In this document: in pieces, positions 950 to 37,830 of the stretch
Numbering within the stretch: the first letter of the stretch is position 1
Layout of the letters: the number at the start of each line of letters is the position of its first letter
NCBI GenBank assembly: GCA_009777445.1
Contig: WRLV01000002.1
Coordinates: 8,256-72,255 of the forward strand
Direction of reading: 5' to 3'
Length of the DNA stretch: 64,000 nucleotides
From: Oscillospiraceae bacterium
GTDB taxonomy: Bacteria > Bacillota > Clostridia > Oscillospirales > Ruminococcaceae
Made by a program: the position numbers and the translations under genes
Notes under the pieces: generated by a model
The model's input: the letters and a program-made list of their open reading frames with translations, nothing else
What the model was told of the DNA's origin: nothing
Database searches by the model: none

Positions 950-2293
950 TTGCCGTATAGCTTTGATGCCGAGCAGGCGGTTTTAGGCTCTGTCTTGCTT
1001 GACTCGTCGGTGATGGATGTGTTAGAGCGGCTTAACCCCGAACATTTTCATGTGGGGTTGCATGGTGAAATTTTTGCGCAAATGCGGCAGATGTTTATAG
1101 TCTCAAAGCCCCTTGATATTGTGACGGTTATAGAAGAAACGCTCAAAAATAAAGTCTTCGATACCCAAGAAGAAGCGAAAAAATTCTTAGGTGGGCTTTC
1201 GGGGGCAGTCTCGACATTATCAAAATCAAGCATCAGAGAATATGCCGGAATTATTGAGGAAAAGTATCTGACAAGGCGATTGGTCTTAGCCTCGAAAGAA
1301 ATTTTTGAGGCGGCATCGGGTGGGCTTAGAGACACCGAGAGCCTTTTAGATTTCGCGGAAGAGAAAATCTATGACATCAGACGTTCGCGTGAAATTCGAG
1401 GGCTTACTTTGATAAAGCCCGACGTTATAGACGCAATGACAAAGCTAACCGAGCTTGCCGCGAATCCCGACGACAAAAGAACCCCTGTTACGGGGCTTTC
1501 GACCGGGTTTTCATACTTAGATAAATCTATTTTCGGGTTAAATAAATCAGACCTCATCATCATTGCAGGGCGACCCGGAATGGGCAAGACGACCTTTGCC
1601 ATGAACATTGCGATTAATGCGGCAAAAATACATTTTGGCAAACAAGTGGCAGTGTTCAGCCTCGAAATGTCGAGAACTCAATTAGTGAACAGGATTTTTC
1701 AAGCCGAAGCTAAAATTACTGCTGAACAAATGAAAACGGGGGTTATTCCTCATACCGCTTGGAATAACATCAGAGAGGCCGCTCAAATCTTGACTCAATT
1801 AGGGGTATACATAGACGACAGCGCGGGCATTTCTATCGGCGAGATGAAGGCTAAACTGCGCCGTATGCCGAATTTGGGGCTTGTGGTGATTGACTATCTT
1901 CAACTCATGTCTACAGGAAGAAGAGACGGAAATCGCGTTAATGAAATATCAGAGCTAACTCGAAATTTAAAGGTTATGGCGAAAGATTTAAATGTCCCGA
2001 TTATTTTGGCATCACAGCTTTCGCGCCAGTCTGAAAAGCGGTTTGACAAAGACAAGAGACCCATGCCGCCCATGCTCTCTGACCTGCGTGATTCGGGTTC
2101 AATAGAACAAGATGCAGACATAGTTGTGTTCCTTCACAGAATCGGATATTACGACCCCGAATACGAATATCCCAACGCCTGTGAATGTCACATTCAAAAA
2201 AACAGGCACGGAGAAACCACTACAATCGGGCTGAACTTTGAAGGGCAGTTCTTCAAATTCACCACGGCAGAGTATAGAGCAGTTGACAGTTGA
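950..2293 (+). CDS. dnaB: Replicative DNA helicase (DnaB family; called DnaC in B. subtilis)
   Basis: It has the N-terminal AEQAVLGSVLLD motif, the Walker A GRPGMGKTTFAMN, and SLEMS and RDSGSIEQDAD motifs. The start is TTG. The TGA stop lies in the first unit of the heptad repeat. Confidence 0.95.
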   Translation: MPYSFDAEQAVLGSVLLDSSVMDVLERLNPEHFHVGLHGEIFAQMRQMFIVSKPLDIVTVIEETLKNKVFDTQEEAKKFLGGLSGAVSTLSKSSIREYAGIIEEKYLTRRLVLASKEIFEAASGGLRDTESLLDFAEEKIYDIRRSREIRGLTLIKPDVIDAMTKLTELAANPDDKRTPVTGLSTGFSYLDKSIFGLNKSDLIIIAGRPGMGKTTFAMNIAINAAKIHFGKQVAVFSLEMSRTQLVNRIFQAEAKITAEQMKTGVIPHTAWNNIREAAQILTQLGVYIDDSAGISIGEMKAKLRRMPNLGLVVIDYLQLMSTGRRDGNRVNEISELTRNLKVMAKDLNVPIILASQLSRQSEKRFDKDKRPMPPMLSDLRDSGSIEQDADIVVFLHRIGYYDPEYEYPNACECHIQKNRHGETTTIGLNFEGQFFKFTTAEYRAVDS

Positions 2294-2436
2294 CGAATAA
2301 TTGACAATGTACAATTGACAATTGACAATTGTGGTGTCCGCTTGCGCGGACGGGTTGTAGGGGACGGGCTTGCCCGTACCGAATTTGTTTGCTAATCCGA
2401 ATGCGGTATTGCGGGACGGGCAAGCCCGTCCCCTAC
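2294..2436 (+). repeat. Composite intergenic repeat, copy 1: heptads, GTCCGC hairpin, and an inverted pair of GGGACGGGC palindromes
   Basis: TTGACAAT-type heptads span 2298-2332. GTCCGCTTGCGCGGAC is at 2336-2351. TAGGGGACGGGCTTGCCCGTACC at 2358-2380 has its reverse complement at 2413-2436. Confidence 0.9.
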
Positions 2437-2519: not shown

Positions 2520-3362
2520 TTGAGCTGTAGAATTATAAAGGCGATTTTGCCTGTTAAGAGCGATGTTGTGTTTCGGCTCTTCTTTGCAGATGAGCGCGAT
2601 ATGGGTGACCTTACGAGGTTTTTGAAAGCTTTTTTGCTATTGTCCGATGATGATTATGACGAGATTGAAATAGCTGACCCTCATTTATTACGAGACTATG
2701 ACGGCGATAAGTTGGCGATTATAGACGTAAAACTTCGTACCAAAAGCAAGAAGACAATCCATATAGAAATTCAGCTTAGAGTAACTCCCGAGATTAAAGA
2801 ACGCGTAATTTATTACAGCTCAAAACTCATAACAGAGCAAATGGGCAGCGGTGATAATTATGACACGATTAAGAAAGTTATAAGCATAATAATCACAGAA
2901 GAAACGCTGATTGCTGATAGTCCGGAATATCATCATCGTTTCGTAATGTTCGACCAAAAATCGAACGTTGAGTTTTCGGATTTGTTGGAAATACATACGC
3001 TTGAGTTGAGCAAATTGCCGATTGATACGGACGGCACAGAGTTGTACGATTGGGCAAAGTTTATTAACGCCGAAACAGAGGAGGAATTAACCATGATTGC
3101 TGAAAGAAACCCACAATTTCAACCGACTGTTGTCAGATTGCGTGAGTTGTCTGGCGATGAAAAGGCACGTGATTTGTATGAACGTAGGGAAAAAGCACGG
3201 CGTGACCATAATATGTTTGTTAGAGGGGCTAAGCAAGAGGGGCGTAATGAACGCTCTTTTGAGATTGCTCAAAGACTTCTTGAACGCGGCAGACCCATTG
3301 AAGAAATTATGGAAGATACCGGTTTAACGCATAAGGAAATTGAACGCTTGCAACTGCATTAA
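2520..3362 (+). CDS. Rpn-family recombination-promoting nuclease / PD-(D/E)XK putative transposase (YhgA-like)
   Basis: The N-terminus SDVVFRLFFADE...DKLAIIDVKLRTKSKKTIHIEIQL is typical of the TIGR01784/Transposase_31 family. The C-terminal tail is helical and charged (ERGRPIEEIMEDTGLTHKEIERL). Confidence 0.75.
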   Translation: MSCRIIKAILPVKSDVVFRLFFADERDMGDLTRFLKAFLLLSDDDYDEIEIADPHLLRDYDGDKLAIIDVKLRTKSKKTIHIEIQLRVTPEIKERVIYYSSKLITEQMGSGDNYDTIKKVISIIITEETLIADSPEYHHRFVMFDQKSNVEFSDLLEIHTLELSKLPIDTDGTELYDWAKFINAETEEELTMIAERNPQFQPTVVRLRELSGDEKARDLYERREKARRDHNMFVRGAKQEGRNERSFEIAQRLLERGRPIEEIMEDTGLTHKEIERLQLH

Positions 3363-3411
3363 AAACAATTCTTAACCCCAAACGCCGCCCAAAAAAATTC
3401 TGCAAAACCTA

Positions 3412-3440
3412 TTGCAATTTCGTTTCAAACGTGTTATAAT
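3412..3440 (+). promoter_or_regulatory. Promoter P1 upstream of the leader of the large surface-protein gene
   Basis: TTGCAA, a 17-nt spacer, then TGtTATAAT (extended -10). Confidence 0.6.
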
Positions 3441-3651: not shown

Positions 3652-3694
3652 GCATTTCTACTAATTTTTGTTATTATTGAAGGAGCTTACCAAT

Positions 3695-6600
3695 ATGAAA
3701 ATCAAATCTACATCAAAAATCGTAGCATGGGTGCTGACTTTCGCACTCGTGTTGAGCCTACTCCCGACCATGTCGTTGACTGTATCGGCGAACACCGACC
3801 TCCTATACAGTAACATTAAAGGCGTAACGATAAGCCTGCCGCCCGGCGCGAGTGTTATTGTAGGGAACGGTTGGTTCAATATCAGCACTGTATTCCCCGT
3901 TCTCGTAACCCTCACTGCCGCTCAAGCCAACGGCAGCGGTCTAACAAGCTTTACTACAAATGGAGCCGACGGCACAAGAGTAATCCATATCACCGCCGCT
4001 ACGGTAGAAACAGCGGGCGGCTTAACCGCCTACCTTAACGCTAATATTAACTCCAACAATGACATTCGGGGTCATAGCGGAAATCTCCGAACGAACTACA
4101 ACAACGGGCCACTCGAACACGGCGATTTCTTAGTCGTGTTTGCGATGGACATTGATTGGAGTGGCGATACCGGCATATACGCCTTTAAGATAGAAATCCC
4201 CGACTGCGAAGTCTGCAACCAAACCCCCTGTGTTTGCGCCGGCTTGACTTATACCGTCACTTTCAACACTAACGGTGGCAGTGCCATTGGCAATGTTACA
4301 GTTACCGAAGGCAACACAATCACCGCCCCGACTGCCCCGACTAAAGAGGGTTATGCTTTCGGAGGTTGGTACAGAAACAGCGCCTTAACCCAGCTGTGGG
4401 ATTTCAATGCTCACACTGTAACGGAAAATATTACCCTCTACGCAAAGTGGACGGCAGCCTATACCGTCACTTTTAACACCGATGGTGGCAGTGCCATTGA
4501 AAATGTCACAGTTTTAGACGGCGGCACAATCACCGCCCCGGCTAATCCGACTAAAGGCGGTTATTCTTTCAGCGGTTGGTTCACAGACACGACTTTAACT
4601 ACTCTCTGGCATTTCAATGCTAACTTCGTATATGGAAATATTACCCTCTATGCAAAGTGGACGGCAGTCCATACCGTCACTTTTGACACCGATGGCGGTA
4701 ATGCCATTGGCAATGTTAGTGTGGTAGACGGCGATAGAATCACCGCCCCGACTGCCCCGGTTAAAGCCACCTTCGTTTTCGATGGTTGGTACAAGGACAC
4801 TGACTTAACTATCCCGTGGGATTTCGATGTTAACGTTGTGACGGAAAATGTAACCCTTTACGCAAAGTGGAAGGCGACTGTAATGCCGGACACGCCGACA
4901 GGCATGTTTAATCTTGCCGATGGTACATGGAATGGTGTGCCATGGGACGAAGCAACAATGGGGGATGCAAACAATATCTCATGGAACAGCCCAATCCTAA
5001 CCGTGAAAGACATCGCGAACATAGAAGTGACAGGCAATGTGGTGGGTACCAATAGTTCAAACAGGTATCGCATTGTTGTTGACGAGGGCGCAACGGCAAG
5101 CATCACGCTGAACAACTTATCTATCAGGCTTGGCGACAGCGTAGCCTCCCCGCTTTTGTTAAACGCGGGAGCAAACCTGTTCCTTACCATTGCGGGAACC
5201 AACACCCTCACGGGGGAGGGAAGTCAACCGGGTATACAAGCCCCCGCCGGAACCACGCTGACGATAGACGGCACAGGCAGTTTGGCAGCCATCGGTGGGA
5301 ACTTCTCCGCAGGTATTGGCGGTGGCGGTCATATCATCATCAAAGGCGGCATACTGTTTAACGGTGACAGCGGCACGGTATACGGCAATGTTGAGCTTGA
5401 GAATGATTTGACACTCACAGCAAACCAAACGCTGACAATCCCGGATAACGCAAAATTGACGATATTGAGCGGTGTAACGCTGACGAACTATGGTACGATT
5501 AACAACAAAGGCACAATTGAAAATAACGGGACGATTATTAACAAAGGGACAGTCATAAACATCGGTACGACTGTTGGTTGGGACTTATATACAGTAACCT
5601 TCAACACCACCGGCGGCAGTGCCATTGGCGATGTTAATGCGGCTAACGGCGATAAAATCATCGCCCCGACTGTTCCGGTTAAAGTCAATTACACTTTCGG
5701 CGGTTGGTACAAAAACGAAAACTTAACCATGCCGTGGGATTTCGCTGTTGACGTTGTGATGGAAGATGTAACCCTCTACGCAAAATGGTTGAATGCTGTT
5801 TGGTGGAACAGCAACGGCAATAATCTCACAGTGCAAGACGGCGACATTGTGGTAATTGCGGCAGGAGCGACCGGTACGCTTACCGTTCCGGCGGGTGCAG
5901 AAATTACGATACTCGGCGGAAGCGCACACGCGCCTATTGATAATGGCACCAACCGCATTAGTTTTGACATTCACGAAACAGCAAAGGTTATATGGCAAGC
6001 TCATTATACAAGCCATACCGGAAATTATACTGAAATATCCGATTCAAGTGCAGGTGTTTTTGAAGTTGCGGGCGGAAGTATCAAAAACACTAACGGTATG
6101 GCAATCATCAATGATTCGACCAATACCAAACTTATAGTAAGTGGTGGAAGTGTCTACTCAAAGTCGCACACTGGTATAGCTTCGTACGGTGATGTTATTA
6201 TCACCGGCGGCAAGGTTGAGTCGGGCGGTATGGATGCGATATCCATGCGGAATAATGCTTTTTTGTTTATTGATTCCGATGTGGAAGTTGTAGCCAATAT
6301 ACTTCTGTTGAACAACGTTGTTGCATTTATAAACAGCGGCGCAACGTTTACCGGGAATGTCTTCACAGGCAATGCTTCGGGTACTAATTCGATTGGCATA
6401 ACCAAAACAACCAATGCCACAGAATTTTACGCAGGACACTCAACCGGATTGGACGTTGTAGGCACAGTTGCAACAGCAGTTTGGGCTGTTCAAGACGGCA
6501 AAAGCGGCATCCGCTACGCTCGCGGCACAAACACGGGCTTTTTTGAAGTGCCGGGCGTGGTTGTAGAAGCCATCTTCGTCAATGGTGTGGAGGTGGGAAA

Positions 6601-8446: not shown

Positions 8447-8465
8447 AAGATATAAATAAGAATAG

Positions 8466-8488
8466 TAGGGGACGGGCTTGCCCGTCCC
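8466..8488. repeat. GGGACGGGC palindrome module of the repeat family, copy 2
   Basis: TAGGGGACGGGCTTGCCCGTCCC begins 20 nt after the stop of the giant gene. Confidence 0.85.
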
Positions 8489-8505
8489 GAATTGAACATG
8501 AACAC

Positions 8506-8541
8506 CGCCCGACACTTATTTGTGTTGGGCGATGTTTTTTT
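8506..8541 (+). terminator. Intrinsic terminator (CGCCCGACAC-type stem shared with the repeat family)
   Basis: CGCCCGACAC-ttatt-tGTGTTGGGCG is followed by a T run, then GGAATGTCTTG, as also seen at 42160. Confidence 0.75.
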
Positions 8542-15349: not shown

Positions 15350-15378
15350 TTGACAAAGTTCTTTTGGTGTGTTATAAT
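15350..15378 (+). promoter_or_regulatory. Consensus sigma-A promoter of the tRNA gene
   Basis: TTGACA, a 17-nt spacer, then TGtTATAAT. Confidence 0.75.
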
Positions 15379-15598: not shown

Positions 15599-15709
15599 AC
15601 ACCGCCCGACACAAAAGTGCAGGGCGGTGTAGCTGTTATAATTCCAAATCCGTCCGCGCAAGCGGACACAATAATTGTCAATTGTCAATTGTACATTGTC
15701 AATTGTTCG
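15599..15709 (-). repeat. Composite intergenic repeat, copy 3 (full-length)
   Basis: ACACCGCCC...GGGCGGTGT hairpin, AGCTGTTATAAT, GTCCGCGCAAGCGGAC (15652-15667), then heptads 15668-15709 that abut the stop of the minus-strand gene. Confidence 0.9.
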
Positions 15710-15982
15710 TCACTTCCACCTCTTCAACTCAGGGAAAAACTTATACATAAACTCGCGTGCTTCGCTTTCGGTCATGCCTTGTTGTTCGAGAATACCGGCT
15801 TCTTTCATGTGCTTTAGACTTATCTCAATCATCTCATCCATAGTGGAATTGTCGGTAAACTCGCCGTCTTTAAAACAGTAGACACAATAATCCGTGTTTT
15901 TGCTATTGTCTTTATTTGTGCCGATTTCCTCCTCTTTAGTCAGCGGCATACCGCAACTTTGGCAATGTTTCATTTCTTCCAT
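15710..15982 (-). CDS. Putative zinc-ribbon domain protein
   Basis: CQSCGMP...YCVYC arrangement followed by a helical tail. This resembles the Zn_ribbon_2 type of small protein. Confidence 0.65.
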   Translation of the reverse strand: MEEMKHCQSCGMPLTKEEEIGTNKDNSKNTDYCVYCFKDGEFTDNSTMDEMIEISLKHMKEAGILEQQGMTESEAREFMYKFFPELKRWK

Positions 15983-23932: not shown

Positions 23933-25528
23933 TTAAGTTGGCCTCCTAATTAAAATATACTCCAAAGAGTCGGATAATGCTTGAATTGATGCGTTTATTA
24001 TATCTTTTGATGCGCCGACGGTTGTCCAGGTTTCTTTGCCGTTAGTGCTTTCGATTAGCACTCTTGTGGTTGATGCCGTGCTGTTGCCTTCGTCAACCAC
24101 CCTGACTTTATAGTCGGAAAGGCGAACACCGCACAACACGGGATAAAGCTTTTCAAGAGCCGCTCTTAACGCTCTGTCTATTGCGTTTACGGGGCCTGTC
24201 CCGTCTAACGTGACCATTTCGCATACATCGTCAACGCGAACTGTCACCGTTGCCGTTGAGAGGTTCGAGTCGTTCAACGATGATATAATTTCAAAGTTTT
24301 CAATCACAAAAAACGGCTTTATTTTACCCAACATTTTCAAAACCAACAGCTCAAAGCTTGCCGCCGCCGCTTCAAAGTGAAATCCTTTATGTTCCATTTT
24401 CTTGATTTTCGCGATTATGTCATTGACAATCGGGCTTGATTTTTCTAAGCCGCTCAACTGCCCGATTTTCATGATTTTAGCAATAACCGCCCCTCTCCCT
24501 GCGACTTCTGACAAGAGCACATTTCTCTCGTTGCCCACCACGCACGGCTCAATATGTTCAAACGAAACGGGATTCTTCAACACCCCGTCAACGTGCATAC
24601 CGCCTTTATGGGAAAAGGCCGCCGTACCGACATATGGCATTCGTGATGAGAGTGCTAAATTCGCGACCTCGGCTATATAATGCGCTGTGTCGGTTAATGC
24701 GCCCATGTTTTTCCCGGCTAAAGTTTTATAAGCCGTTTTCGCCTCAAGATTGGGTATGAGCGTTGATAAATTTGCGTTTCCTGTTCTCTCACCGATTCCG
24801 ATAAACGTACCCTGAATTTGCCGCGCTCCCGCTCTTACCGCCTCAATGCTGTTGGCAACGGCACAACCGCTGTCATTATGAGCGTGGATTCCTATAGTCA
24901 GTCGCTCATCGGAAAGCTCTCTCTTAACGTCAGCGACAATTTCAAAAATTTCATGCGGCAAAAAACCGCCGTTTGTATCACAAAGAATTATTTTCTCTGC
25001 CCCGGCTTTATGGGCGACTTTTAAACTGTCAAGGGAATAGTCACGATTATTTTTATAGCCGTCAAAAAAATGTTCGGCATCAAAAAACACGGTTTTGCCT
25101 TTGTCGATTAAGTATTCTATGCTTTGCTCAATCATTTTGAGGTTTTCGAGAAGGGTTGTGTCTAAAATGTCGAACACATGCAAGTCCCAACTCTTCCCGA
25201 AAATGGTTGCGTATTTTGTGTTGGCCTTTAAAATCGCGTTTAGATTATCGTCATCGCAAGGGGCGATTAGCTTTCGCTTGGTGGAGCCAAAGGCGACAAG
25301 AGCTGAATTTTTAAGTCGCACAAGCTTTGCCTTTTCAAAAAAATGTAAATCTTTGGGGTTAGAGCCGGGATTGCCCGCTTCAATATAATCAACCCCGAAC
25401 TCGTCTAATCTGCTTAATATTTTAAGTTTATCGGAAACCGAAAAACTTATGCCACGCGACTGCGCCCCATCCCTCAAAGTAGAATCATATATTTCAACTG
25501 CGTTTATATTTTGCACTTCACTCTCCAC
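23933..25528 (-). CDS. cimA: Citramalate synthase / 2-isopropylmalate synthase family protein
   Basis: YDSTLRDGAQSRGISFSVSDKLKILSRLDEFGVDYIEAGNPGSNPKD, HAHNDSGCAVANS and a C-terminal LeuA-dimer-like domain. Confidence 0.8.
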   Translation of the reverse strand: MESEVQNINAVEIYDSTLRDGAQSRGISFSVSDKLKILSRLDEFGVDYIEAGNPGSNPKDLHFFEKAKLVRLKNSALVAFGSTKRKLIAPCDDDNLNAILKANTKYATIFGKSWDLHVFDILDTTLLENLKMIEQSIEYLIDKGKTVFFDAEHFFDGYKNNRDYSLDSLKVAHKAGAEKIILCDTNGGFLPHEIFEIVADVKRELSDERLTIGIHAHNDSGCAVANSIEAVRAGARQIQGTFIGIGERTGNANLSTLIPNLEAKTAYKTLAGKNMGALTDTAHYIAEVANLALSSRMPYVGTAAFSHKGGMHVDGVLKNPVSFEHIEPCVVGNERNVLLSEVAGRGAVIAKIMKIGQLSGLEKSSPIVNDIIAKIKKMEHKGFHFEAAAASFELLVLKMLGKIKPFFVIENFEIISSLNDSNLSTATVTVRVDDVCEMVTLDGTGPVNAIDRALRAALEKLYPVLCGVRLSDYKVRVVDEGNSTASTTRVLIESTNGKETWTTVGASKDIINASIQALSDSLEYILIRRPT

Positions 25529-25537
25529 CCTCCACTC

Positions 25538-25768
25538 TCAACTCGCAACAGCGACACTCAAAACATCATAAAGCCGCAAAAGTCGTCTTTGAATGTCGGT
25601 TGTTTCTTCCGGCGTGCTTTCTATAGAAATTTCCATTTCAGATATTTGTGAGTCGGGCGTGGGGGCGCAATAAAGCGAATGTATGTTATGCCCATCGCGG
25701 CTGATTACACTAACCACCCTCAACAAAACACCATGGGTATTTTCTGTTTTCAATATAAGCTTACACAC
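25538..25768 (-). CDS. ACT-domain acetolactate synthase small-subunit-like protein
   Basis: KLILKTENTHGVLLRVVSVISRDGHNIHSL is an IlvN/IlvH-type ACT fold. I chose the GTG start at 25768 because it overlaps the upstream stop (GTGTGTAA coupling). Confidence 0.6.
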   Translation of the reverse strand: MCKLILKTENTHGVLLRVVSVISRDGHNIHSLYCAPTPDSQISEMEISIESTPEETTDIQRRLLRLYDVLSVAVAS

Positions 25769-26531
25769 TTTTAGATTCCTCACTAATAAAATAATTAAGC
25801 GCGTCCTTAACATCACAGACTATATCGGCATCGTCAATGTCTATGTGTAAAACGTTCGGGATTTTAATAACGGGCGGCTTTGTCCCCAAAACTAAAACCA
25901 AATCACAGTCATCCCGGTTGATTAAATCATCAGTAACAGGGGTATCAACTAAGCTCGAAAACTTCTGAAGTTCATAATCGGCATAGTTGAATATAAAGCC
26001 GTCTTTTGCATAAATCAGCGGTTTTTTCGCCCCCTTGAACATTTCAAGGGCGTTGTCAAGCGTGTCGTTCGGAAGTGCGCGAAGGGTGATTTTAAACGGT
26101 TTTTCGTGTTTATAGACACAAGTTGAATTGGTTATTTCTTCCGCTAAATCGACTAATACCACCCCTTTGCGCCCGTCACCGGCAATGAAAAACGCCTTTC
26201 TGATTGAATCGGCGAGTTCTTCAACGCTGCGGACTAAAATGCTGTGTTTGGTGATGGGAAGGGTTATTCCGATTATATCCAACTTCACGGGAGAGTTGAG
26301 GGTATTATTAACAGAAATAATAACCAAAGGCGTTCTGTCACAATTTGATTTTGCTATTGGAATGACTTGCCCGGCTATGTCAGAGGCCAAAGCTAATATA
26401 ACCCCTGTTTTATTTTCAGCGCGCGCATATTCGTCGGCGGCAAAAACAGATTCAGCACCGCCGCCGAAAATCATGTCGATTCCGTGTTCCGAAAAACATT
26501 CAAGTATTATTTTCGCACCCTGAAGCTTCAT
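25761..26531 (-). pseudogene. Truncated, divergent acetolactate synthase large-subunit-like ORF (N-terminal and central domains only, no ThDP-binding C-terminal domain)
   Basis: Only 256 aa, against about 560 aa for IlvB. GAKIILECFSEHGIDMIFGGG...EYARAENKTGVILA...RTPLVIISV resembles the TPP_enzyme_N domain with internal deletions. The GDG..N ThDP motif is absent. Confidence 0.5.
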
Positions 26532-26639
26532 CCTTTTTTCTCCCCGTTTTTTTAAATCTACTATTTATAATAACAAAATTCTTTCAAACTATGAATGGAT
26601 ATTCCCCCTTATTAATTTTATAAGAAATAAGCAAATTTG

Positions 26640-27707
26640 TCAAGAATTAGAAAAATATTTATCATTAAAAATAACCGACTTGTCGCGCGGTTTCAGTTCT
26701 TTTGACTTTTTATGGTAATATAGTGCTTTTTCACGCTCTCCCAATCGGTCATAACAAACGCACAGCTCAATATATGGGATAAAATCATAGCAGTCGTTTA
26801 GAACAAACCCTTTTCTTTCTGAAATGTTTGACGTTAACGCGCTTTCATACCAAAAAGCGGCAGCTTTATATTCACCCTTATTCGCAAAAAAATGCCCCAT
26901 TTTGCAGCAACCTTCGGCGCGGGGCCTGTCATAATAAAAAGCGTTCAGCACAGATGTCACCGCTTTTTGTTCATCGTTGGGATAACACTCATATAAATCA
27001 AGACAGGCTTGAATTTTATCCTCATTCCAACCGTGTTTTTCTTCTAAGAAGGCTCTGAACCACTCTGCCGCCTCTTCAAGTCGGTGGTGGAACATCAACT
27101 CGCGCGCATAATAAAACTTATCGCGTGCCGAAAGACTGCCTTTGTCTAAAAGCCGTTCAAAAATGTCGATGTTTCTGAACGGGTCGCCCGGTTTTAGTTT
27201 TCGGTGTTCTATTGAAATGTCAAAGTTTTTAACTTTTCCGCGTGGGGTTATGCCTTCGTGGATTGCCCCTCCCCACCTATAGTTCATCTCGCGCTTGAAG
27301 AGACGTTCCCGAAAATAACTTGTGATTGGGCGGTCTTCATTGTCGAAATTTACGTTATAGCGCAACATCGCCATGTCTACGTCGCCTTTTGACAAATCTT
27401 CTTTTAAGTTTAAGAATTTTTCATGTTCTGAAGCGGCGACAATATCATCGGCATCTAACCACATTTGATATTGGGCAGTTGCTTTTGAGAACGAGAAGTT
27501 GCGTGCGGCAGCAAAGTCATAAATCCACTCAAAATCATAGATTTTGTCGGTATAATTCGCCGCTATTTGTTTTGTTTTATCCTTTGAGCCGGTGTCAACT
27601 ATTATTATTTCGTCCACTAACGCCTTTACGCTGTCAAGACAACGCCCCAACAACTCTTCTTCATCTTTGACTATCATGCACAAACTAATTTCTGCCACCA
27701 AAATCAC
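26640..27707 (-). CDS. Family-2 glycosyltransferase with C-terminal TPR-like repeats
   Basis: ISLCMIVKDEEELLGRCLDSVKALVDEIIIVDTGSKDKT and DADD motifs, followed by helical repeats. The exact start (GTG at 27707 or a nearby codon) is uncertain. Confidence 0.75.
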   Translation of the reverse strand: MILVAEISLCMIVKDEEELLGRCLDSVKALVDEIIIVDTGSKDKTKQIAANYTDKIYDFEWIYDFAAARNFSFSKATAQYQMWLDADDIVAASEHEKFLNLKEDLSKGDVDMAMLRYNVNFDNEDRPITSYFRERLFKREMNYRWGGAIHEGITPRGKVKNFDISIEHRKLKPGDPFRNIDIFERLLDKGSLSARDKFYYARELMFHHRLEEAAEWFRAFLEEKHGWNEDKIQACLDLYECYPNDEQKAVTSVLNAFYYDRPRAEGCCKMGHFFANKGEYKAAAFWYESALTSNISERKGFVLNDCYDFIPYIELCVCYDRLGEREKALYYHKKSKELKPRDKSVIFNDKYFSNS

Positions 27708-27751
27708 CCTTTCAGCGTTTTTTCTATCTTATGCCGAAGGGAGTTAAAACA

Positions 27752-27792
27752 ACACAACTGTCAACTGTCAATTGTCAACTGTCAACTGTTCG
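27752..27792 (-). repeat. Heptad-only copy of the repeat family, copy 4
   Basis: CAACTGT/CAATTGT heptads directly abut the stop (27793-27795) of the minus-strand DUF3795-like gene. Confidence 0.85.
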
Positions 27793-28092
27793 TCAACTGA
27801 CTTTTATATCTATCCATTTAGGATAGACGGTTTCGATGGTTAAGAGTTCTCCGCCCACGGGTTCTGTGTTGCGTTCATCGTCTTTATATTTAACGCAGGG
27901 GTAGTTTACGCACTCAACACATTCGTACTTTTCCATTTTATTATAGCAGCAATTATATATTGGGCAAATCACCTCATCCACAAATTCAAGCCAAAACACT
28001 CTCCCCTGCACTTCATTGCACCCTGTGCAATCGTGGGGAAAGTGTATACATTCGCCGCAATCTCTGCCGCAGCAACTTATAATGTCATCCAT
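27793..28092 (-). CDS. Cys-rich DUF3795-like protein
   Basis: MDDIISCCGRDCGECIHFPHDCTGCNEVQGRVFW...CPIYNCC. The ATG at 28092 is preceded by AAAGGTGGTG. Confidence 0.7.
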   Translation of the reverse strand: MDDIISCCGRDCGECIHFPHDCTGCNEVQGRVFWLEFVDEVICPIYNCCYNKMEKYECVECVNYPCVKYKDDERNTEPVGGELLTIETVYPKWIDIKVS

Positions 28093-28236
28093 ACGACACC
28101 ACCTTTCAACGACCAATAATATATATTGTATCAAGAAAATACAAGTTTGTCAATATATCGACAAAATTTTATTTCACCTTTTATTTCACATAGCGGTGAA
28201 AATTTGATGAGAGATTGAGAAAAACGTTCAGATGTG

Positions 28237-28265
28237 TTGACAACGGGGCAAAAAATTGGTATTAT
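28237..28265 (+). promoter_or_regulatory. Promoter of the relB/dinJ-like gene
   Basis: TTGACA, a 17-nt spacer, then TGgTATTAT. Confidence 0.6.
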
Positions 28266-28283
28266 AGTATTGGAGGTGGTATT

Positions 28284-28589
28284 ATGCAAAGCGCGAAATC
28301 AACAATAAATGTTAAAATTGACACGAGCGTAAAAGAAGCGGCAGCGGAATTATTGTCAAGAATGGGTATCGACCAGACAACAGCGATTGACATGTTCTAC
28401 CGCAAAATCATTGCCGTAAGGACTATCCCGTTTCAGCCGGAACCGCTCCCCACAAACGGCGAGCTTTTACTCGCCGCCATCAAGCGCAAAGGTATTCCGC
28501 ATAAAACAGTTGAAGTAAACGAGCAAGGTCACATATTTGTAGACAAAGACAAAGACCCCGACCTTTATGATTGGGCGGTGAACGGCTGA
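28284..28589 (+). CDS. RelB/DinJ-family type II antitoxin
   Basis: RBS GGAGGTGG. The sequence INVKIDTSVKEAAAELLSRMGIDQTTAIDMFYRKI is typical of a DinJ ribbon-helix-helix. Confidence 0.75.
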   Translation: MQSAKSTINVKIDTSVKEAAAELLSRMGIDQTTAIDMFYRKIIAVRTIPFQPEPLPTNGELLLAAIKRKGIPHKTVEVNEQGHIFVDKDKDPDLYDWAVNG

Positions 28590-28672
28590 TGAAAGCTTTT
28601 GATATTTTCATTTCTTATGTGTCATGGAGCGGCGGTGGTAAAATGCGCCCTGTCTTGATTCTCGAAGGCTAA
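28589..28672 (+). pseudogene. 27-codon remnant of the cognate toxin (PemK/MazF-like N-terminus?)
   Basis: ATGA start/stop overlap with the antitoxin. It encodes MKAFDIFISYVSWSGGGKMRPVLILEG and then TAA, which is far too short for a functional toxin. Confidence 0.35.
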
Positions 28673-28700
28673 TCGAATTTATTGCTCAATAAAGCCGCTC

Positions 28701-28729
28701 TTGACTTATCCAAAATTTAGTGTTATAAT
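28701..28729 (+). promoter_or_regulatory. Promoter of the zinc-ribbon membrane protein gene
   Basis: TTGACT, a 17-nt spacer, then TGtTATAAT. Confidence 0.6.
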
Positions 28730-28773
28730 AATAAAAGCAGTTGTCAACTATTCAGAAAGGGCTTAACTAAAAA

Positions 28774-29745
28774 ATGAAAATTTGTAATAATTGTCAAAAG
28801 AGTTTGGGCGAGGGTGACCGATTTTGTCATGCTTGTGGCGAAAGTGTCGAAGGCAAAATCGAAGTCAAAAGCGAATCTACACCTGTAACCGCTTCAAACG
28901 ACAACCCCCAATGGAACAACCTTTATCCCGGTGGCGCGCAAAGAGAAGAGTCGCGTTTTTATACCGCCGCGCCGCGTGCGCATGTTCTTGAGCGTTTGAA
29001 AACCGGCCCGTTTCTTCCTTTACTTAAAGCTGCGATTGTACTTTTAATTCTCAATTCGATTTTTAGTATAATCTCACTTGTCGTTGTTCTTAACACAGAT
29101 GTTGAGTCACTTTACAGCACGAATTTTGAGAGTTTGACTTATCAGTATCGTGAAATATTAGAAGCGATGTTAACCTCTGTCGCATTCTTTACTGCCGGGT
29201 GGATTGTCATCAGCGCGTTGCTCTTAGTGGGGCTTATTAAATGTCGCTCAACTTGTTTAAACGACAGCTTTCCTTTTTACAAAACCGCCGGCCCTACGCT
29301 TATAAAAGCCTCAGGGATTTGCTCTATAGTCGTAACCGGGTTGTTTGGTTTTCTGCTTTTTGCCTTCGCTTCTCGTTCTTTCAACGGAGCAGTCAGCACA
29401 CAATTGGAGTCTCAGTTCTACGCGCTCTTTTATTTTATCCTTACGCTTGGCTTGGCAATCGCAGCGGTGTTGCCGGTTTCGATTTTCATCAGCATTATCA
29501 CCACGGCGAATAAACTTAAAGTTATTTTCACTGAAGAGCCAAACAGCACTGTTAAACAAAAACTCGGGCTTTTTCTGCCGGTTGTTATGTTCGTAGGGGG
29601 AGGACTCAACGCCCTGCAAGTTCTTACACTATTGTTCAAAGGCACCTTGCTTGAGCTTATCGCAATGCTTCCTTCTACAGCGTTTTTAATTATATTACCA
29701 ATTGCCTACTTGAAGTTTCGCAAAGAATACATGACGAACAATTGA
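28774..29745 (+). CDS. Zinc-ribbon N-terminal domain, multi-pass membrane protein (hypothetical)
   Basis: CNNCQKSLGEGDRFCHACG followed by about 6 hydrophobic helices. The stop TGA lies inside the CAATTGACAATG heptads. Confidence 0.7.
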   Translation: MKICNNCQKSLGEGDRFCHACGESVEGKIEVKSESTPVTASNDNPQWNNLYPGGAQREESRFYTAAPRAHVLERLKTGPFLPLLKAAIVLLILNSIFSIISLVVVLNTDVESLYSTNFESLTYQYREILEAMLTSVAFFTAGWIVISALLLVGLIKCRSTCLNDSFPFYKTAGPTLIKASGICSIVVTGLFGFLLFAFASRSFNGAVSTQLESQFYALFYFILTLGLAIAAVLPVSIFISIITTANKLKVIFTEEPNSTVKQKLGLFLPVVMFVGGGLNALQVLTLLFKGTLLELIAMLPSTAFLIILPIAYLKFRKEYMTNN

Positions 29746-29858
29746 CAATGTACAATTGACAATTGACAATGGTGGAGTCGCCTTTCGGCGACGGATTTTA
29801 AAAACGTCCGCGCAAGCGGACACCACGACTGTCCACTATCCACTGTCCACTGTCAACT
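29739..29858. repeat. Two back-to-back copies of the repeat family, copy 5a/5b
   Basis: Heptads at 29739-29772. GTCGCCTTTCGGCGAC at 29777-29792. GTCCGCGCAAGCGGAC at 29806-29821. Inverted CCACTGT-type heptads at 29823-29858. Confidence 0.85.
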
Positions 29859-29876
29859 ATGATAAAGGGGGTTTGT

Positions 29877-31106
29877 ATGAAAAAGATTTTTGCTTTGTTT
29901 TTGGCGTTTGTGTTTGCGTTTGGGGTTGTGCCGTTTTCGGCTTTGGGGGCGGACGAATGGGCGGGGTGGGTCGGCATTTCAACCCCGGAAGATTTGCGGC
30001 TGTTGAATAATTCGAGTAATAAATTCTATCTAAGGGGAGATATTGAACTCAATGACATTACATCATGGCAACCGATTCCTTTGTTTAAGGGGACACTTGA
30101 CGGAAATAACTTTGCTATAATGAACTTGACGAGCACAAGGGGTGGGCTGTTCAACCGATTAGATGGCGCGACAATCAAGAACTTAGGGTTGTTGAATGTC
30201 GATGTGCGGTTTGCTTCAACAGTGGGTGGATTGTCTAACGAGTATAGTCAAACGATTACTGTTGAAAACAGCTATATAACCGGGAGAGTCGCGTATATCG
30301 GCAATAACCCCACTTTGCACTTCGGCGCGTCAGGATTTGTCGGTGCGAGAATAGGCGATTCAGGCGAAGCGCGGTTCATAAATTGTTATAACGGCGCGGC
30401 TGTCACATCGTCAATAAGCGCGTCGGGAATAAGCACATCGCTTGGAGTCTATACAAACTGTATAAACGCAGGGGAGATTATCGGCGGCTGTAAAGACGGC
30501 TATATTGGGGGGATTACCTCTAATCTTGTGGGAAAAACCATGTCGTTTTGCTATAATTTTGCCAAAATCGCCAACACCGTCAACAATTTGACAGGTGGGT
30601 TAGCAGGGGAAACCGAAAGTGCTTATATTCGCGGCGGTGCAACAATCGGGAAAGCCGTTGCAACAACCGACAGAATTAGCATATCCGAAACAATAGAAAA
30701 TGCAGAGCTTTCTGAATTTAAAAAGTCACAAACCTATGAAGGCTTTGATTTCGAGAATATTTGGTATATCAACCCACAGATAAATGACGGATTCCCACTT
30801 CTTCGTTCTATGTCAAGACATTACCAACTAACCGAGGAAGAAGAAGAGAAAGAAGAAGTCAAAGAAGAAGCGGCTACCGTTATTGCAATCGCTCTTCATG
30901 TGAGACTTAGGGTTGGCGACAGAATAAGACTCGGCGCGGCTCTGAACCCGGCTGACTCAGACGAGAGGATAACATACAGCTCAAACAGACCCGCAGTTGC
31001 ATCAGTGAGCAGTGCGGGGGTGGTCAGAGCAAGAACCCCGGGAGCGGCAATTATAACGGTCGCCGCCGGAAACGTCTCACAACGAATAAGAATTCGCGTC
31101 TCATAA
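29877..31106 (+). CDS. Secreted protein with GLUG-like Gly-rich repeats and a C-terminal Big_2 Ig-like domain
   Basis: RBS AAAGGGGG precedes the signal peptide MKKIFALFLAFVFAFGVVPFSALGA. GG(L/I) motifs recur. The C-terminus VGDRIRLGAALNPADSDERITYSSNRPAVASVSSAGVVRARTPGAAIITV is Big_2-like. Confidence 0.7.
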   Translation: MKKIFALFLAFVFAFGVVPFSALGADEWAGWVGISTPEDLRLLNNSSNKFYLRGDIELNDITSWQPIPLFKGTLDGNNFAIMNLTSTRGGLFNRLDGATIKNLGLLNVDVRFASTVGGLSNEYSQTITVENSYITGRVAYIGNNPTLHFGASGFVGARIGDSGEARFINCYNGAAVTSSISASGISTSLGVYTNCINAGEIIGGCKDGYIGGITSNLVGKTMSFCYNFAKIANTVNNLTGGLAGETESAYIRGGATIGKAVATTDRISISETIENAELSEFKKSQTYEGFDFENIWYINPQINDGFPLLRSMSRHYQLTEEEEEKEEVKEEAATVIAIALHVRLRVGDRIRLGAALNPADSDERITYSSNRPAVASVSSAGVVRARTPGAAIITVAAGNVSQRIRIRVS

Positions 31107-31142
31107 CGATGAGCCAAAAAACAGAAAGGCGGAAGTTAAATT

Positions 31143-31847
31143 TTGATTCCCTTTAAACCCAACACCGGAAAGTCCCTCGAAATTAAAACGGACAGCGGTA
31201 TTTATTTGAGATACCCCATAAGAACTCATGTCATAATGAAAGAAGATATTATGGAACGTGTGGTGGACGACTATGCGCGTGAATATCTTCAAGAGGGGGA
31301 TTGTCTGTTCATATCCGAAAAAATTATCGCGATTATGCAGGGGCGTTCTTATAAAGTGTCGGAAATAAAAGTCTCACGCTTAGCTAAATTTTTAGTAAGA
31401 TTTGTATATAAGCCGGATTACGGCATAGGCATAGGCTCTCCTGCCACTATGGAGCTTTGTATTCGCGCGGTGGGAAGGGTTAAGATTCTCTTTGCGGCAT
31501 TTTGCTCGGCAATCGGAAAGCTTTTCGGCAAAAGAGGGGTATTCTATAACATATGCGGGCCTGCCGCACGCGCAATTGACGGGCCGTGTGATTATACCAT
31601 TCCCCCTTACAACGAATACGCCAAAATGGCACCGGACAAGCCTTTTGAGGTAGCTGAAAAATTATCATGCCATTTAAATTGCCCCGTTGTCATAATAGAC
31701 GCAAATGACATTGCCGCAAACGTATTAGGAAAATATCCGCTTTCTATCACCGACAGTTTTTGCGAACAAGTTTTCAGCGACAACCCGTTAGACCAATGCG
31801 ACCAACAAACACCGCTGTGCATTGTCCGACGGGCAGCTGACAGTTAG
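31143..31847 (+). CDS. Gamma-glutamyl ligase (CofE/F420-ligase-like) family protein
   Basis: EGDCLFISEKIIAIMQGRSY resembles the F420_ligase family core. The start is TTG. Confidence 0.5.
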   Translation: MIPFKPNTGKSLEIKTDSGIYLRYPIRTHVIMKEDIMERVVDDYAREYLQEGDCLFISEKIIAIMQGRSYKVSEIKVSRLAKFLVRFVYKPDYGIGIGSPATMELCIRAVGRVKILFAAFCSAIGKLFGKRGVFYNICGPAARAIDGPCDYTIPPYNEYAKMAPDKPFEVAEKLSCHLNCPVVIIDANDIAANVLGKYPLSITDSFCEQVFSDNPLDQCDQQTPLCIVRRAADS

Positions 31848-31861
31848 GAGGGATTGGTTTT

Positions 31862-33328
31862 ATGCGTTCTTGTGGGATTTTACTTCATATTTCTTCTTTG
31901 CCATCGCCTTATGGAATAGGGACTTTTGGCGATGATGCTAAGCGGTTTGTTGACTGGGTTGCGGGGGCAGGATTGAAGCACTGGCAAATTTTGCCGCTTT
32001 CTCCTACCGGATTCGGCAACTCGCCCTATCAATCTTTCTCAACCTTTGCCGGAAACCCGTTGTTGATTGATTTAGATGACTTAATAAATTTAGGGCTGCT
32101 CGATAAGCAAGACTGCAAACAAGCAGACTTTGGCAAAAATCCGTCACTTATTGACTTTGAAAAGGTAAGCCACGCAAAGCTATCACTATTAGAAAAGGCT
32201 TTCCGGCGAGCCGCCACTTCCGATTATGACAAGTTCGCACAGAGTGAAGCGTTTTGGTTGGATGATTATGCTTTATATATGTCGATTAAAGAGTCAATGG
32301 GAGATAAAAGCTGGCTTGAATGGGATAAAGACTTACTCACGCGAAGCGAAAGTGCTATCGATAAAGCAAAAGCACAACACAAAGAACGCATCGCGTTTTG
32401 GAAGTTTGTTCAATATACCTTTGCGCGACAATGGCGCGAACTTCGCGAATATGCGAATAAAAACGGGGTTGAAATTATTGGCGACCTTCCCATCTATGTG
32501 GCTGTTGACAGTGCCGATGTGTGGGCTAATCCTGCCTTGTTCAGGTTAGACGACAACTTTAAACCCACCCGTGTTGCCGGCGTTCCCCCTGACTATTTCT
32601 CCTCAACAGGGCAACTCTGGGGCAATCCGCTTTACGACTGGGAGAAGATGAAGGCCGAAAACTATCATTGGTGGCTCAGCCGCATTAAAAAGAATCTTGA
32701 GCTTTACGACTGTGTGAGAATAGACCATTTTCGCGCATTCGATACCTATTACACCATACCTGCCGCCCACAACAACGCCATAAACGGTGGGTGGGAAGTC
32801 GGCCCCGGCATGGACTTATGGAACGCCGTCAGAGAAGAACTCGGAGAAATTAATGTAATCGCAGAAGATTTAGGTGAAATTTTTGAGTCTGTGCGTGTGT
32901 TGTTAAAAGACAGCGGTTTTCCCGGCATGAAGGTGTTGCAATTTGGGTTTAATGGCGAAAACAACGATAATGAACACCTGCCGCATCGTTATCCCGTGGG
33001 CTGTGTTGCCTACAGTGGAACTCACGACAACGCAACTTTCGAGGGGTGGTATAGACATTCCACCCAAAACGAAAAGGCTATGGCTAAACGTTATCTCAAG
33101 CCGCGCACTTTTGAGCCGATTAGCAAGGCGGCAATCCGCGCGCTCTTTCAAAGCCCTGCCGACTTGACAATCATCGCCATGCAGGACGTTTTGAGTTTAG
33201 ACAACCGCGCGCGAATGAACCTGCCGTCAACAATTGGCGACAACTGGATTTGGCGAATGAAACCCGGCGCGTGTAAACAAAAGCACGCGAAATTCCTCAA
33301 AGAACTGTGCGAAACTTATTTTAGATGA
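31862..33328 (+). CDS. malQ: 4-alpha-glucanotransferase (amylomaltase, GH77)
   Basis: CGILLHISSLPSPYGIGTFG, RIDHFRAF, IAEDLG and GTHDN motifs. Confidence 0.95.
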   Translation: MRSCGILLHISSLPSPYGIGTFGDDAKRFVDWVAGAGLKHWQILPLSPTGFGNSPYQSFSTFAGNPLLIDLDDLINLGLLDKQDCKQADFGKNPSLIDFEKVSHAKLSLLEKAFRRAATSDYDKFAQSEAFWLDDYALYMSIKESMGDKSWLEWDKDLLTRSESAIDKAKAQHKERIAFWKFVQYTFARQWRELREYANKNGVEIIGDLPIYVAVDSADVWANPALFRLDDNFKPTRVAGVPPDYFSSTGQLWGNPLYDWEKMKAENYHWWLSRIKKNLELYDCVRIDHFRAFDTYYTIPAAHNNAINGGWEVGPGMDLWNAVREELGEINVIAEDLGEIFESVRVLLKDSGFPGMKVLQFGFNGENNDNEHLPHRYPVGCVAYSGTHDNATFEGWYRHSTQNEKAMAKRYLKPRTFEPISKAAIRALFQSPADLTIIAMQDVLSLDNRARMNLPSTIGDNWIWRMKPGACKQKHAKFLKELCETYFR

Positions 33329-33372
33329 AAGCCTTGCATTTTTTGGCTCAATATGCTATACTTTAATATGTT

Positions 33373-35240: not shown

Positions 35241-35347
35241 CAGTTGACAGTGGACAGTTGAGAGTTGATAGTGATTGTGTCCGCTTGCGCGGACGACTTG
35301 TAGGGGACGGGCTTGCCTGTCCCGATTTTTTTCGCCCCGTCCCCTAC
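35241..35347 (+). repeat. Composite intergenic repeat, copy 6
   Basis: Heptads at 35241-35278. GTCCGCTTGCGCGGAC at 35279-35294. TAGGGGACGGGCTTGCCTGTCCC at 35301-35323. Half copy GCCCCGTCCCCTAC at 35334-35347. Confidence 0.9.
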
Positions 35348-35375
35348 AATAACTGTCAAACTTTTTTCAAACCCC

Positions 35376-35404: not shown

Positions 35405-35428
35405 TAATCTAAAGAAAAGGAGCGTTGT

Positions 35429-37813: not shown

Positions 37814-37830
37814 GTTCGTTTGTTGCAAGT

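Follow-up and report, generated by a model that had tools for sequence, protein, structure and literature searches.

Mosaic inverted-repeat elements with stop-rich heptad arms at gene ends in an uncultured Oscillospiraceae lineage

The window analyzed here is a 64,000-nucleotide stretch of an uncultured, Clostridium-like Oscillospiraceae bacterium of the gut (GenBank assembly GCA_009777445.1, contig WRLV01000002.1, positions 8,256 to 72,255 of the forward strand), and the subject is a family of intergenic elements built on tandem arrays of a 7-nt unit, the heptad. The family is a mosaic of non-coding repeats of the kind known as repetitive extragenic palindromes (REPs), bacterial interspersed mosaic elements (BIMEs), and MITEs (miniature inverted-repeat transposable elements). 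Its heptads lie at the ends of genes, where they usually provide the stop codon. We think it probable that the family is a lineage-specific selfish or neutral repeat, in which the supply of stop codons is a consequence of the sequence and not a demonstrated device of the host.

An earlier note, made from the letters of the window, had proposed a modular family at 11 loci, and the module counts bear out the family as real, standing far above what 100 dinucleotide-preserving shuffles of the window give. The junction of heptads with a small hairpin (search pattern TTGAYARTN6GTCSSCTTKCGSSGAC) occurs 8 times versus 0.00 expected, the small hairpin GTCSSCTTKCGSSGAC 9 times versus 0.01, and GGGACGGGCWWGCCCGTCCC, with its GGGACGGGC palindrome, 6 times versus 0, while the hairpin ACACCGCCC..GGGCGGTG is at 3 loci versus 0. 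The features that had been stated are in the sequence; the locus at 8466 has GTAG and terminator-like hairpins only, with neither heptads nor the small hairpin. There are 11 period-7 arrays in the window (Table 1, where copies are numbered with the prefix c), and pooling the window with related contigs gives an enlarged census of 66 non-redundant arrays. The elements are not assembly artefacts, because contig L032, which belongs to an ENA assembly made independently, agrees with window 24173-36215 at 99.975% and carries c4, c5, and c6 unchanged; identical copies in two independent assemblies rule that explanation out.

The complete element is an inverted repeat, seen as 13 pairs of facing arrays that span 121-303 bp in the window and related contigs. 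From the outside to the inside, an arm consists of a leader TGACGRA, 3-11 heptads, and a 6-bp GC hairpin, the latter being joined to 54 of the 66 arrays. The interior of c5 is empty and that of c9 contains a terminator-like hairpin; in one-armed copies a GTAG-tagged REP or REP dimer takes this place. The shortest pairs, c5 and the one in contig L033, are merely two arms with a short AT spacer. The heptad consensus is [C/T/G]A[A/G]T[T/G][G/T]A, most commonly CAATTGA or CAGTTGA. Over 272 units, A2, T4, and A7 are almost invariant (269-271 of 272), and the TGA is intact in 221 and lost in 51 (19%; CAATGTA, CAATGGA, and similar). Arrays are of an A type (CAATTGA CAATGTA CAATTGA CAATTGA), of a B type (CAGTTGA CAGTTGA CAATTGA GAGTTGA), or, in more distant contigs, of TAATTGA types. 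Within subfamilies the array sequences are constant, with no variation in copy number, and they are identical in two assemblies. A slippage-type heptamer simple sequence repeat was rejected on the grounds of this fixity and of the attached hairpin.

The small hairpin is under structural constraint. Its stems are GTCCGC/GCGGAC (26), GTCGCC/GGCGAC (13), and GTCGGC/GCCGAC (5), with GTGCCGC, ATGCCGC, and ATCGCG as rarer forms; the search pattern permitted non-complementary combinations, and every stem found is complementary. Four of the 6 stem pairs are altered on both sides, with pairing at 100% versus 16-57% when the partner column is slid, the 100% to be read with the caveat that the set was picked for possessing the hairpin. 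The loops are TTGC, TTTC, TCAC, TCGC, TTAC, and TTC, which on the opposite strand read GCAA, GAAA, GTGA, GCGA, GTAA, and GAA and are GNRA-like.

Inside the arms, a terminator-like module with GGATTTnnAATTATAACAGCT in front of it is present in c3, c7, and c9, and a REP module, GTAGGGGACGGGC-TT-GCCCGTCCC, is present singly or as a head-to-head dimer in c1, c2, c6, and c11. An intrinsic (rho-independent) terminator would have a T-run right behind a GC-rich hairpin, in the sense of the upstream gene. Runs of T follow the hairpin in c2 (T7), the REP in c6 (T7), and also occur in c9; they are weak or absent in c1, c3, c5, c7, and c11. The REP part of c1 is two inverted copies of GTAGGGGACGGGCTTGCCCGTCCC, so placed that 2357-2436 folds into one long hairpin, and the predicted fold of the whole of c9 has a stem of about 45 bp at -134.8 kcal/mol. 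The modules recombine, with heptads joined straight to a GTAG REP in contigs L016 and L024. In L014 (Ga0099364_10001699), three complete arms lie head-to-tail at 3205-3375 with a period of 65-78 nt, facing one inverted arm at 3052, so the arm can be amplified in tandem. Rfam has no family at gathering scores for the element, and the permissive matches to AaHKsRNA41 (18.7 bits) and GOLLD (11.5 bits) are at chance level.

Forty-three of the 66 arrays adjoin the 3' end of a same-strand gene, at -62 to +24 nt, and 38 of these 43 genes have at least 100 aa; another 15 arrays face a gene start, mostly as the far arm of a pair, 4 are distant from the upstream gene, and 4 have no called gene upstream. 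Just 1 array is antisense within 30 nt of a 3' end, and the open reading frame (ORF) concerned, of 65 aa, is doubtful. The antisense overlaps with called genes are all at 5' ends and come from start codons over-extended through the open antisense frame. Of the 43 adjoined genes, 33 have a TGA of the element as their stop codon, 5 have a TAA or TAG with which a TAATTGA or TAGTTGA unit opens, and 5 have a native codon 2-24 nt upstream of the array. A TGA stop is used by 34 of the 43 (79%) versus 44 of 128 other genes (34%). The pattern is robust, since neither of the outcomes that the earlier note had named against itself, a lack of orientation bias and a stop overlap at chance frequency, was found: the census, six-fold larger than the original one, has 43 sense contacts versus at most 1 antisense, and the excess of TGA stops is as just given.

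Within the window, the nine gene-proximal contacts that had been claimed, all in the sense orientation, are upheld by a separate gene caller based on codon usage. A TGA of the element serves as the stop in 8 of them, the exception being gene 37339-37734, whose native TAG lies 2 nt ahead of the element. Roughly a fifth of the genes (~18% of window gene ends) carry an element, and these genes include the essential dnaB, valS, and ilvE. The small genes among them are genuine, 15710-15982(-) encoding a full-length Zn_ribbon_2 protein and 27793-28134(-) a protein with a DUF3795 domain; the window genes are clostridial in character and include a sporulation-type PdaA-like deacetylase. At c1, TGA starts at 2291, 2302, 2316, and 2323, in frames 2, 1, 0, and 1, exactly as first listed, and the DnaB profile match stops at residue 440 of 447, the tail ..RAVDS being encoded by GCAGTTGACAGTTGA. 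Arrays with stops in all three sense frames number 55 of 66, and those with none in the antisense 49 of 66. That (TCAATTG)n is free of stops in every frame was correctly noted and explains the spurious antisense ORFs, such as 36435-36737, which reads ...IVNCQLYIVNC... and has no family match, while the sense gene there, 36528-37175, is a normal protein.

Strict sense orientation therefore stands as an observation (43 versus at most 1), but much of the rule is geometric. In the inverted repeat the heptads form the outer ends and are always directed inward, which puts any arm that meets a gene end in sense. Geometry does not account for everything. One-armed copies nearly always have the heptad end at the stop, and pairs have a polarity: of the pairs in which just one arm is at a stop, all 8 have the GTCGCC or GTCGGC hairpin on that arm and the GTCCGC type on the far one. 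At 2127/2327 in L016, both ends of the element adjoin the stops of convergent genes.

Three comparisons show that the element replaced the last 3-5 codons of the genes that it ends. IlvE has the C-terminus WVRKIKF in a relative that is 81% identical and WVRKVT in the window; that relative is the closest one, the same organism aside. ValRS ends KILEALKE in a relative and KILQLTAVDS in the window, in agreement with the claim that its terminal LTAVDS is element-encoded. In the third case, two homologous gene ends with 96% identity upstream read MSEQEIMELLNDES at the empty site (window 54687) and MSEQEIKEILLTVDS at the filled one (contig L012). Unrelated proteins have acquired common element-encoded tails, DnaB and ValRS both ending in AVDS and six unrelated proteins in TNN, TNS, or TDN. 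The native tail at window 54687 has some likeness to the interior of the L012 element, which we dismiss as an AT-rich coincidence, as other copies share that interior.

The empty site of the L012 pair belongs to window 54687-55835 (-), a NIF3/DUF34 protein that has a C-terminal extension of about 130 residues of (GREE/GMEK)n, with tandem repeats at 54770-54876, ending ..GMSEQEIMELLNDES. This tail, at 96% DNA identity, also ends a gene of another contig, L012, whose last codons the element has replaced. A separate divergence is seen at window 36215, inside gene 35429-36313, where positions 1-751 of L006 (a JGI assembly) and 12044-12846 of L032 are 100% alike and both depart from the window exactly at this position. 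Past it the 294-aa protein has another C-terminal tail in L006 and L032, behind which there is a RelB gene but not the element. The divergence is either a strain variant, arising by recombination of paralogous '...GMSxEEI...' tails, or a join that makes the window contig chimeric. We rejected it as an empty site, since what differs is a swapped gene tail, and a look-up of the 294-aa neighbor for filled and empty sites at strain level found nothing. The RelB call in L032 seemed to conflict with gene 36528-37175; the conflict is resolved because L032 differs from the window there, and the ORF on the + strand of the window is spurious.

A search for the junction among 185,579 reference species finds it in 1 other genome, an Oscillospiraceae metagenome-assembled genome (L002), two further matches looking like chance. 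A metagenome scan finds it in 24 contig stretches, mostly from two samples. The viral-contig collection has one contig with it, L033 (IMG/VR UViG_2820259584_000002, classed viral), where a minimal inverted-pair element lies at 3690-3815 beside the 5' end of a gene; this may point to a prophage or phage carrier of the family. The plasmid and phage collections have no blastn match for c9. Window copies and those of other contigs share 92-98% identity, with flanks that are unrelated, and 12-21 kb of sequence from relatives with 81% and 75% identical IlvE contains no copy. The family is young and confined to a narrow lineage.

As to how such a family would arise, the reading that we prefer is a non-autonomous repeat that spreads in copy-and-paste fashion, both to intergenic DNA distal to genes and to the final few codons of the genes themselves. 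Both arms point inward with a TGA every 7 nt, so an ORF coming from either side is closed within 0-9 codons, and as a result the element becomes the new gene end. Stop-rich arms would in this way render insertions at gene ends tolerable, and purifying selection would retain the copies with the shortest tails and those that spare the start region of the downstream gene. The hairpins may work in single-stranded nucleic acid, either for recognition by a mobilising enzyme or as 3'-end or terminator structures in RNA. Copies with a canonical leader fall into classes by the stop that the gene uses: 12 have the leader TGA, 6 have the TGA at +11, which gives a tail of four residues, and 0 have the third frame, whose tail would be of nine; 6 are expected of each (chi-square 12). 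This distribution fits selection for short tails, and fits some in-frame preference as well.

Several results weigh against a selfish or neutral repeat of this kind. No transposase, RAYT (REP-associated tyrosine transposase), or other candidate mobilising enzyme turned up in the window or loci (~230 kb in total, the window plus ~170 kb of loci) by clustering of all predicted proteins, nor was there a Y1 transposase match among the proteins scanned against family profiles, which are some of those in the ~230 kb. No target-site duplication is found at any of the 13 pairs; TGA, TCA, TA, and TAA were tried and none is consistent, and the similarity of the outer flanks merely prolongs the inverted repeat. 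A missing duplication fits single-strand (Y1-type) or recombination-based spread better than classical DDE transposition, but is itself evidence for neither. The displaced native terminal codons were not found past the far side of the element, and because of their absence a simple insertion fails to explain the replaced tails. In all but a few of the 43 contacts, the element starts within 3 nt of the stop region or overlaps it, and selection alone may fall short of explaining such tight placement, or the two ends of the L016 element. Nor is the polarity of the pairs predicted by pure symmetry. Finally, all copies are young, and for that reason conservation cannot separate function from recency.

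The sole multi-copy protein families near the elements are the PD-(D/E)XK family Rpn (3 copies) and leucine-rich-repeat surface proteins, and we rejected Rpn as the mobilising enzyme, as its link with the elements is not consistent. One Rpn gene, at window 2520-3362 (+), is annotated 'Rpn / putative transposase' (PF12784, TIGR01784) and lies just past the REP dimer of c1; copies 88-94% identical are at L011 5064-5612 and L024 11019-11207. Directly downstream of c9, window 42335-42955 (+) encodes a small serine recombinase of 206 aa with a Resolvase N-terminal domain. It overlaps the start of 42952-50127 (+), a 2391-aa protein of 69-bp (23-residue) leucine-rich-type repeats, and the two could form an invertase or phase-variation arrangement.

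A reading that goes one step further takes the heptad arm as an evolved 'translational insulator' of a mobile element, which we regard as possible but rather doubtful. If true, its stops in every frame at both ends, together with hairpins or terminators, would permit it to land on or overwrite the last codons of dnaB, valS, and ilvE without death of the host. A stronger version has insertion actively aimed at translation stop regions. The engineered omega interposon, which Prentki and Krisch reportedly described in 1984, is said to carry all-frame stops and transcription terminators at inverted ends and to be polar on both sides. That likeness is functional only, as omega is artificial, and an insulator arm would be its natural counterpart.

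It is quite unlikely, in our judgment, that the heptads are a fail-safe translation terminator selected by the host, stopping ribosomes in all frames after frameshifting or read-through and marking where the coding region ends ahead of a structured 3' untranslated region. The idea draws on the one-sided stops (three sense frames closed in 55 of 66 arrays, no antisense stop in 49), on the use of an element stop by 33-38 of the 43 adjoined genes, and on the presence of elements at the essential dnaB, valS, and ilvE. The earlier note had likewise said that the heptads act as a stop trap, and for this as a statement of function the census gives no evidence. TGA density per unit is 0.84 in gene-adjoining arrays versus 0.81 in the others, those that face gene starts or nothing (p = 0.79), a comparison that is weak because the copies are young, and the 51 units without a TGA are a further point against a trap. 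We see no evidence that three-frame stops are a locally selected function. Every TGA of an array has C as the next base, and TGA-C is the weakest termination context known in Escherichia coli. Relatives do without the element, and in the window itself just the ~18% of gene ends mentioned above have it.

A role as transcriptional regulator, with the heptads as iterated TTGACA or the motif TGTTATAAT as putative promoters, we also hold to be improbable; one version of it has an outward antisense promoter, whose RNA would begin at the small hairpin and reach the upstream gene's 3' end in antisense. The -35 and antisense-promoter ideas of the earlier note do have real motifs behind them. The 9-mer TGTTATAAT is on the antisense strand of c3, c7, and c9, is similar in at least 8 related copies, of which one variant keeps TGCTATAAT, and is probably used by the host, because the same 9-mer precedes a tRNA-Thr (15370) and gene starts (3432, 28721). 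Yet the copies offer no usable -35 (AAAGTG or AAACTG), the TTGACA sites of the heptads are paired solely with the poor second hexamers GACAAT or GATAGT, and the module is missing from most copies (c1, c4, c5, c6, c8, c11). The hairpin is divided on the question of strand: its loops are GNRA-like on the antisense strand, but in two copies the stem has a G-T pair, which forms in the sense strand only. As an observation on the host, the exact 9-mer, an extended -10 motif, is at window 15370-15378, 3432-3440, 28721-28729, and 40557-40565, about 45 nt upstream of the tRNA-Thr and before several genes, and appears to be the preferred promoter core here.

We find it distinctly improbable that the position comes from homing to stop sites, in which insertion would recognize stop regions or a TGA target and targeting, not selection, would set the placement. 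The very tight distribution of distances would follow, as would the leader TGA being in frame in 12 of 18 canonical copies versus 6 expected, the L016 element with both of its ends on convergent stops, and the polarity of all 8 paired elements. The leader TGACGRA, however, is also found at arms far from stops (the right arm of c9, L014, L016-10143, and L024), and is for that reason part of the element and not of the target. There is neither a conserved flank nor a duplication, and in the IlvE, ValRS, and L012 comparisons the element starts 3-5 codons ahead of the ancestral stop. Published REPs are equally near ORF 3' ends without known stop targeting (PMC3733652).

Least probable of all is that the heptads are a candidate binding array for a nucleoid protein, a transposase, or a 3'-untranslated-region binder with the TGA incidental, which has in its favor the near invariance of A2, T4, and A7 while the TGA is broken in 51 units and the fixity of sequences within subfamilies with no slippage variation, has no candidate protein found for it, and could fold into the selfish or neutral repeat that we prefer, because a terminal inverted-repeat position suits transposase binding equally well.

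Table 1. Copies of the element in the window, with their parts, positions, strands, and gene contacts
Copy or part	Position	Strand	Description
Period-7 arrays (11)	2280-2332, 15672-15712, 27754-27790, 29738-29772, 29826-29860, 35237-35272, 36490-36530, 37737-37814, 42048-42082, 42242-42285, 50237-50277		
c1 heptad array	2280-2332	+	CAGTTGA x2, leader TGACGAA, then TAATTGA CAATGTA CAATTGA CAATTGA CAATTGT
c1, DnaB stop	TGA 2291-2293	+	belongs to leader TGACGAA
c1 small hairpin	2336-2351	+	GTCCGC-TTGC-GCGGAC
c1 REP dimer	2357-2436	.	head-to-head GTAG-tagged hairpins, GTAGGGGACGGGC-TT-GCCCGTACC ... GGGACGGGC-AA-GCCCGTCCCCTAC
c2	8465-8541	+	single GTAG REP 8465-8488; without heptads or small hairpin
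c2 terminator-like hairpin	8502-8541	+	ACACCGCCC..GGGCGATG then T7
c3	15599-15712	-	leader TGACGAA 15706-15712 is stop of Zn-ribbon gene 15710-15982
c3 inner parts		-	heptads 15672-15705, hairpin 15652-15667, terminator-like hairpin 15599-15630
c3 module GGATTTGGAATTATAACAGCT	15631-15651	-	opposite strand holds TGTTATAAT at 15634-15642
c4	27752-27795	-	leader TGACGAA and five CAGTTGA/CAATTGA units; without hairpin
c4 leader TGA		-	stop of gene 27793-28134
c5	29732-29862	.	minimal complete element: two arms, 13-nt AT spacer
c5 left arm	29732-29792		leader, heptads, hairpin GTCGCC-TTTC-GGCGAC
c5 right arm			GTCCGC-type hairpin 29806-29821 and inverted heptads 29826-29860
c5 first CAATTGA		+	stop of gene 28774-29745
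c6	35234-35347	+	heptads; IlvE stop TGA 35238-35240; hairpin 35279-35294
c6 REP	35300-35323	+	GTAG REP then T-run; degenerate inverted partner ends CCCCTAC at 35347
c7	36377-36530	-	leader TGACGGA, its TGA the stop of gene 36528-37175; heptads
c7 inner parts		-	hairpin 36470-36485, module c 36449-36469, terminator-like 36418-36448, REP-like 36378-36398
c8	37737-37814	+	about 11 units, the longest array; a leader TGACGAA lies within it at 37751; without hairpin
c8 gene contact		+	array begins 2 nt past native TAG stop of gene 37339-37734
c9	42048-42283	.	full-length element; left arm heptads and hairpin 42086-42101
c9 first CAATTGA		+	stop of deacetylase gene 41086-42054
c9 interior			module c 42102-42122, terminator-like hairpin 42123-42153
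c9 right arm			hairpin 42223-42238 and inverted heptads and leader 42242-42283
c11	50137-50276	-	leader TGACGG and heptads; ValRS stop TGA 50257-50259; hairpin 50217-50232
c11 REP dimer	50137-50211	-	GTAG, head-to-head; folds long hairpin; 9 nt from stop of convergent gene 42952-50127

Other repeats are present in the window. Directly after the heptads of c8, 37830-37938 consists of 2.2 copies of a 49-bp unit, TGAAACCAGCGCGTGAGATGTTGTAAATAAAGCTCACGTATTCCCGGTC, with 96% identity, and a strong terminator-like hairpin follows these repeats at 37956-37984. In-frame tandem repeats in large surface-type proteins are at 4251-4875, 39400-39722, 43420-47495, and 57651-57971, with units of 210 bp (in a 1592-aa protein), 18 bp (18 times), and 69 bp (many times), and are unrelated to the heptads.

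The earlier note knew of no description of such an element, but precedents exist for its parts, among them the GTAG REPs (PMC3733652) and the TAACTGA repeats (PMC4679880). A GTAG REP is defined by an unpaired GTAG at one end of a short, GC-rich palindrome with a stem of 6-13 bp and a short loop, often TY, and forms inverted dimers 20-100 bp apart that are foldable as a single hairpin (PMC3733652). In REP-rich genomes REPs are mostly in the spacers of unidirectional or convergent ORFs, at most 20 bp from 3' ends (PMC3733652), and the ends of GTAG REPs frequently give the stop codon, some repeats lying within gene ends (Di Nocera et al. 2013, PMC3733652). The inner module here agrees with GTAG REPs and REPINs (PMC3733652; Bertels and Rainey 2011, PMC3116915) in having GTAG plus GGGACGGGC-TT-GCCCGTCCC, in which the GC stem is 9 bp long and the loop is of the TY type. 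It further agrees in forming head-to-head dimers, 27-32 nt apart at 2357-2436 and 50137-50211, in that all window copies are in unidirectional or convergent spacers and none in a divergent one, in lying at most 20 bp from ORF 3' ends, and in having stops given by the terminus of the repeat. It differs in its Clostridia host and in that no RAYT gene, the cognate Y1 transposase gene that REPs often flank, was seen in the window and loci by protein clustering and by profile scans of some of the proteins, and the stop here comes from a separate heptad module without counterpart in published REPs, not from the GTAG. The survey of Di Nocera et al. includes no Firmicutes (PMC3733652). The small hairpin was also considered as a CGTC REP, which is defined by an unpaired terminal CGTC, an 8-9 bp stem that starts with A-T pairs, and a CCA tail. 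Its complement does read CGTC, but with the GTC inside the stem, which has 6 bp, all of them G-C apart from a single T-A; a CCA tail is lacking as well, so we rejected it.

The BIMEs of enterobacteria, which have IHF and gyrase as protein partners, are mosaics of palindromic units and short motifs in alternating orientation after genes. The mosaic organisation is alike, the motifs are unrelated, and we know of no heptad arrays described in BIMEs. Correia elements, MITEs of Neisseria, are non-coding, 100-300 bp long, with long terminal inverted repeats and long hairpins, lie near genes in many copies, and can alter gene ends. The present family resembles MITEs in its 13 inverted pairs of 121-303 bp, its lack of coding capacity, and its many copies (66 arrays); it is unlike them in that neither a target-site duplication nor, in the window and loci, a parent insertion sequence with the same ends was found and in that the arms are tandem heptads with a hairpin and not a unique sequence. 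The heptamers of cyanobacteria known as short tandemly repeated repetitive (STRR) sequences are intergenic tandem 7-nt repeats. The TAACTGA repeats of Beggiatoaceae, Cyanobacteria, and Bacteroidetes have stops in the forward direction and an open frame in reverse (MacGregor 2015, PMC4679880), and their one-sided stops are said to limit overlap with coding ends, the arrays being mainly upstream of start codons (PMC4679880). Both kinds share with the present arrays the tandem 7-nt intergenic units with stops on one strand only; unlike them, the present arrays are at stop codons and are arms of a larger inverted repeat, not free-standing. Mycobacterial interspersed repetitive units (MIRUs), which Supply et al. 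reportedly described in 1997, are said to be direct repeats of 40-100 bp whose small ORFs couple the translation of operons. They too are intergenic, oriented with the flanking genes, and overlap stop codons, but are without hairpins or inverted arms.

The principle, that repeats can supply stops and that heptamers can be stop-rich on one strand, is therefore already published. What is new is the heptad array as the arm of an inverted repeat, joined with a covarying hairpin and a GTAG REP, as well as the clostridial host and the large share of genes with rewritten last codons. These findings bring REP/MITE-type mosaics, a textbook GTAG REP included, into an uncultured lineage of Oscillospiraceae, and describe a compact route by which a repeat becomes the physical end of many genes. 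For annotation, they account for antisense ORFs that are spurious, for downstream genes with over-long N-termini, and for an excess of TGA stops. They also provide a defined system in which to ask whether targeting or selection brings a repeat so close to stop codons, which is a question for REPs generally.

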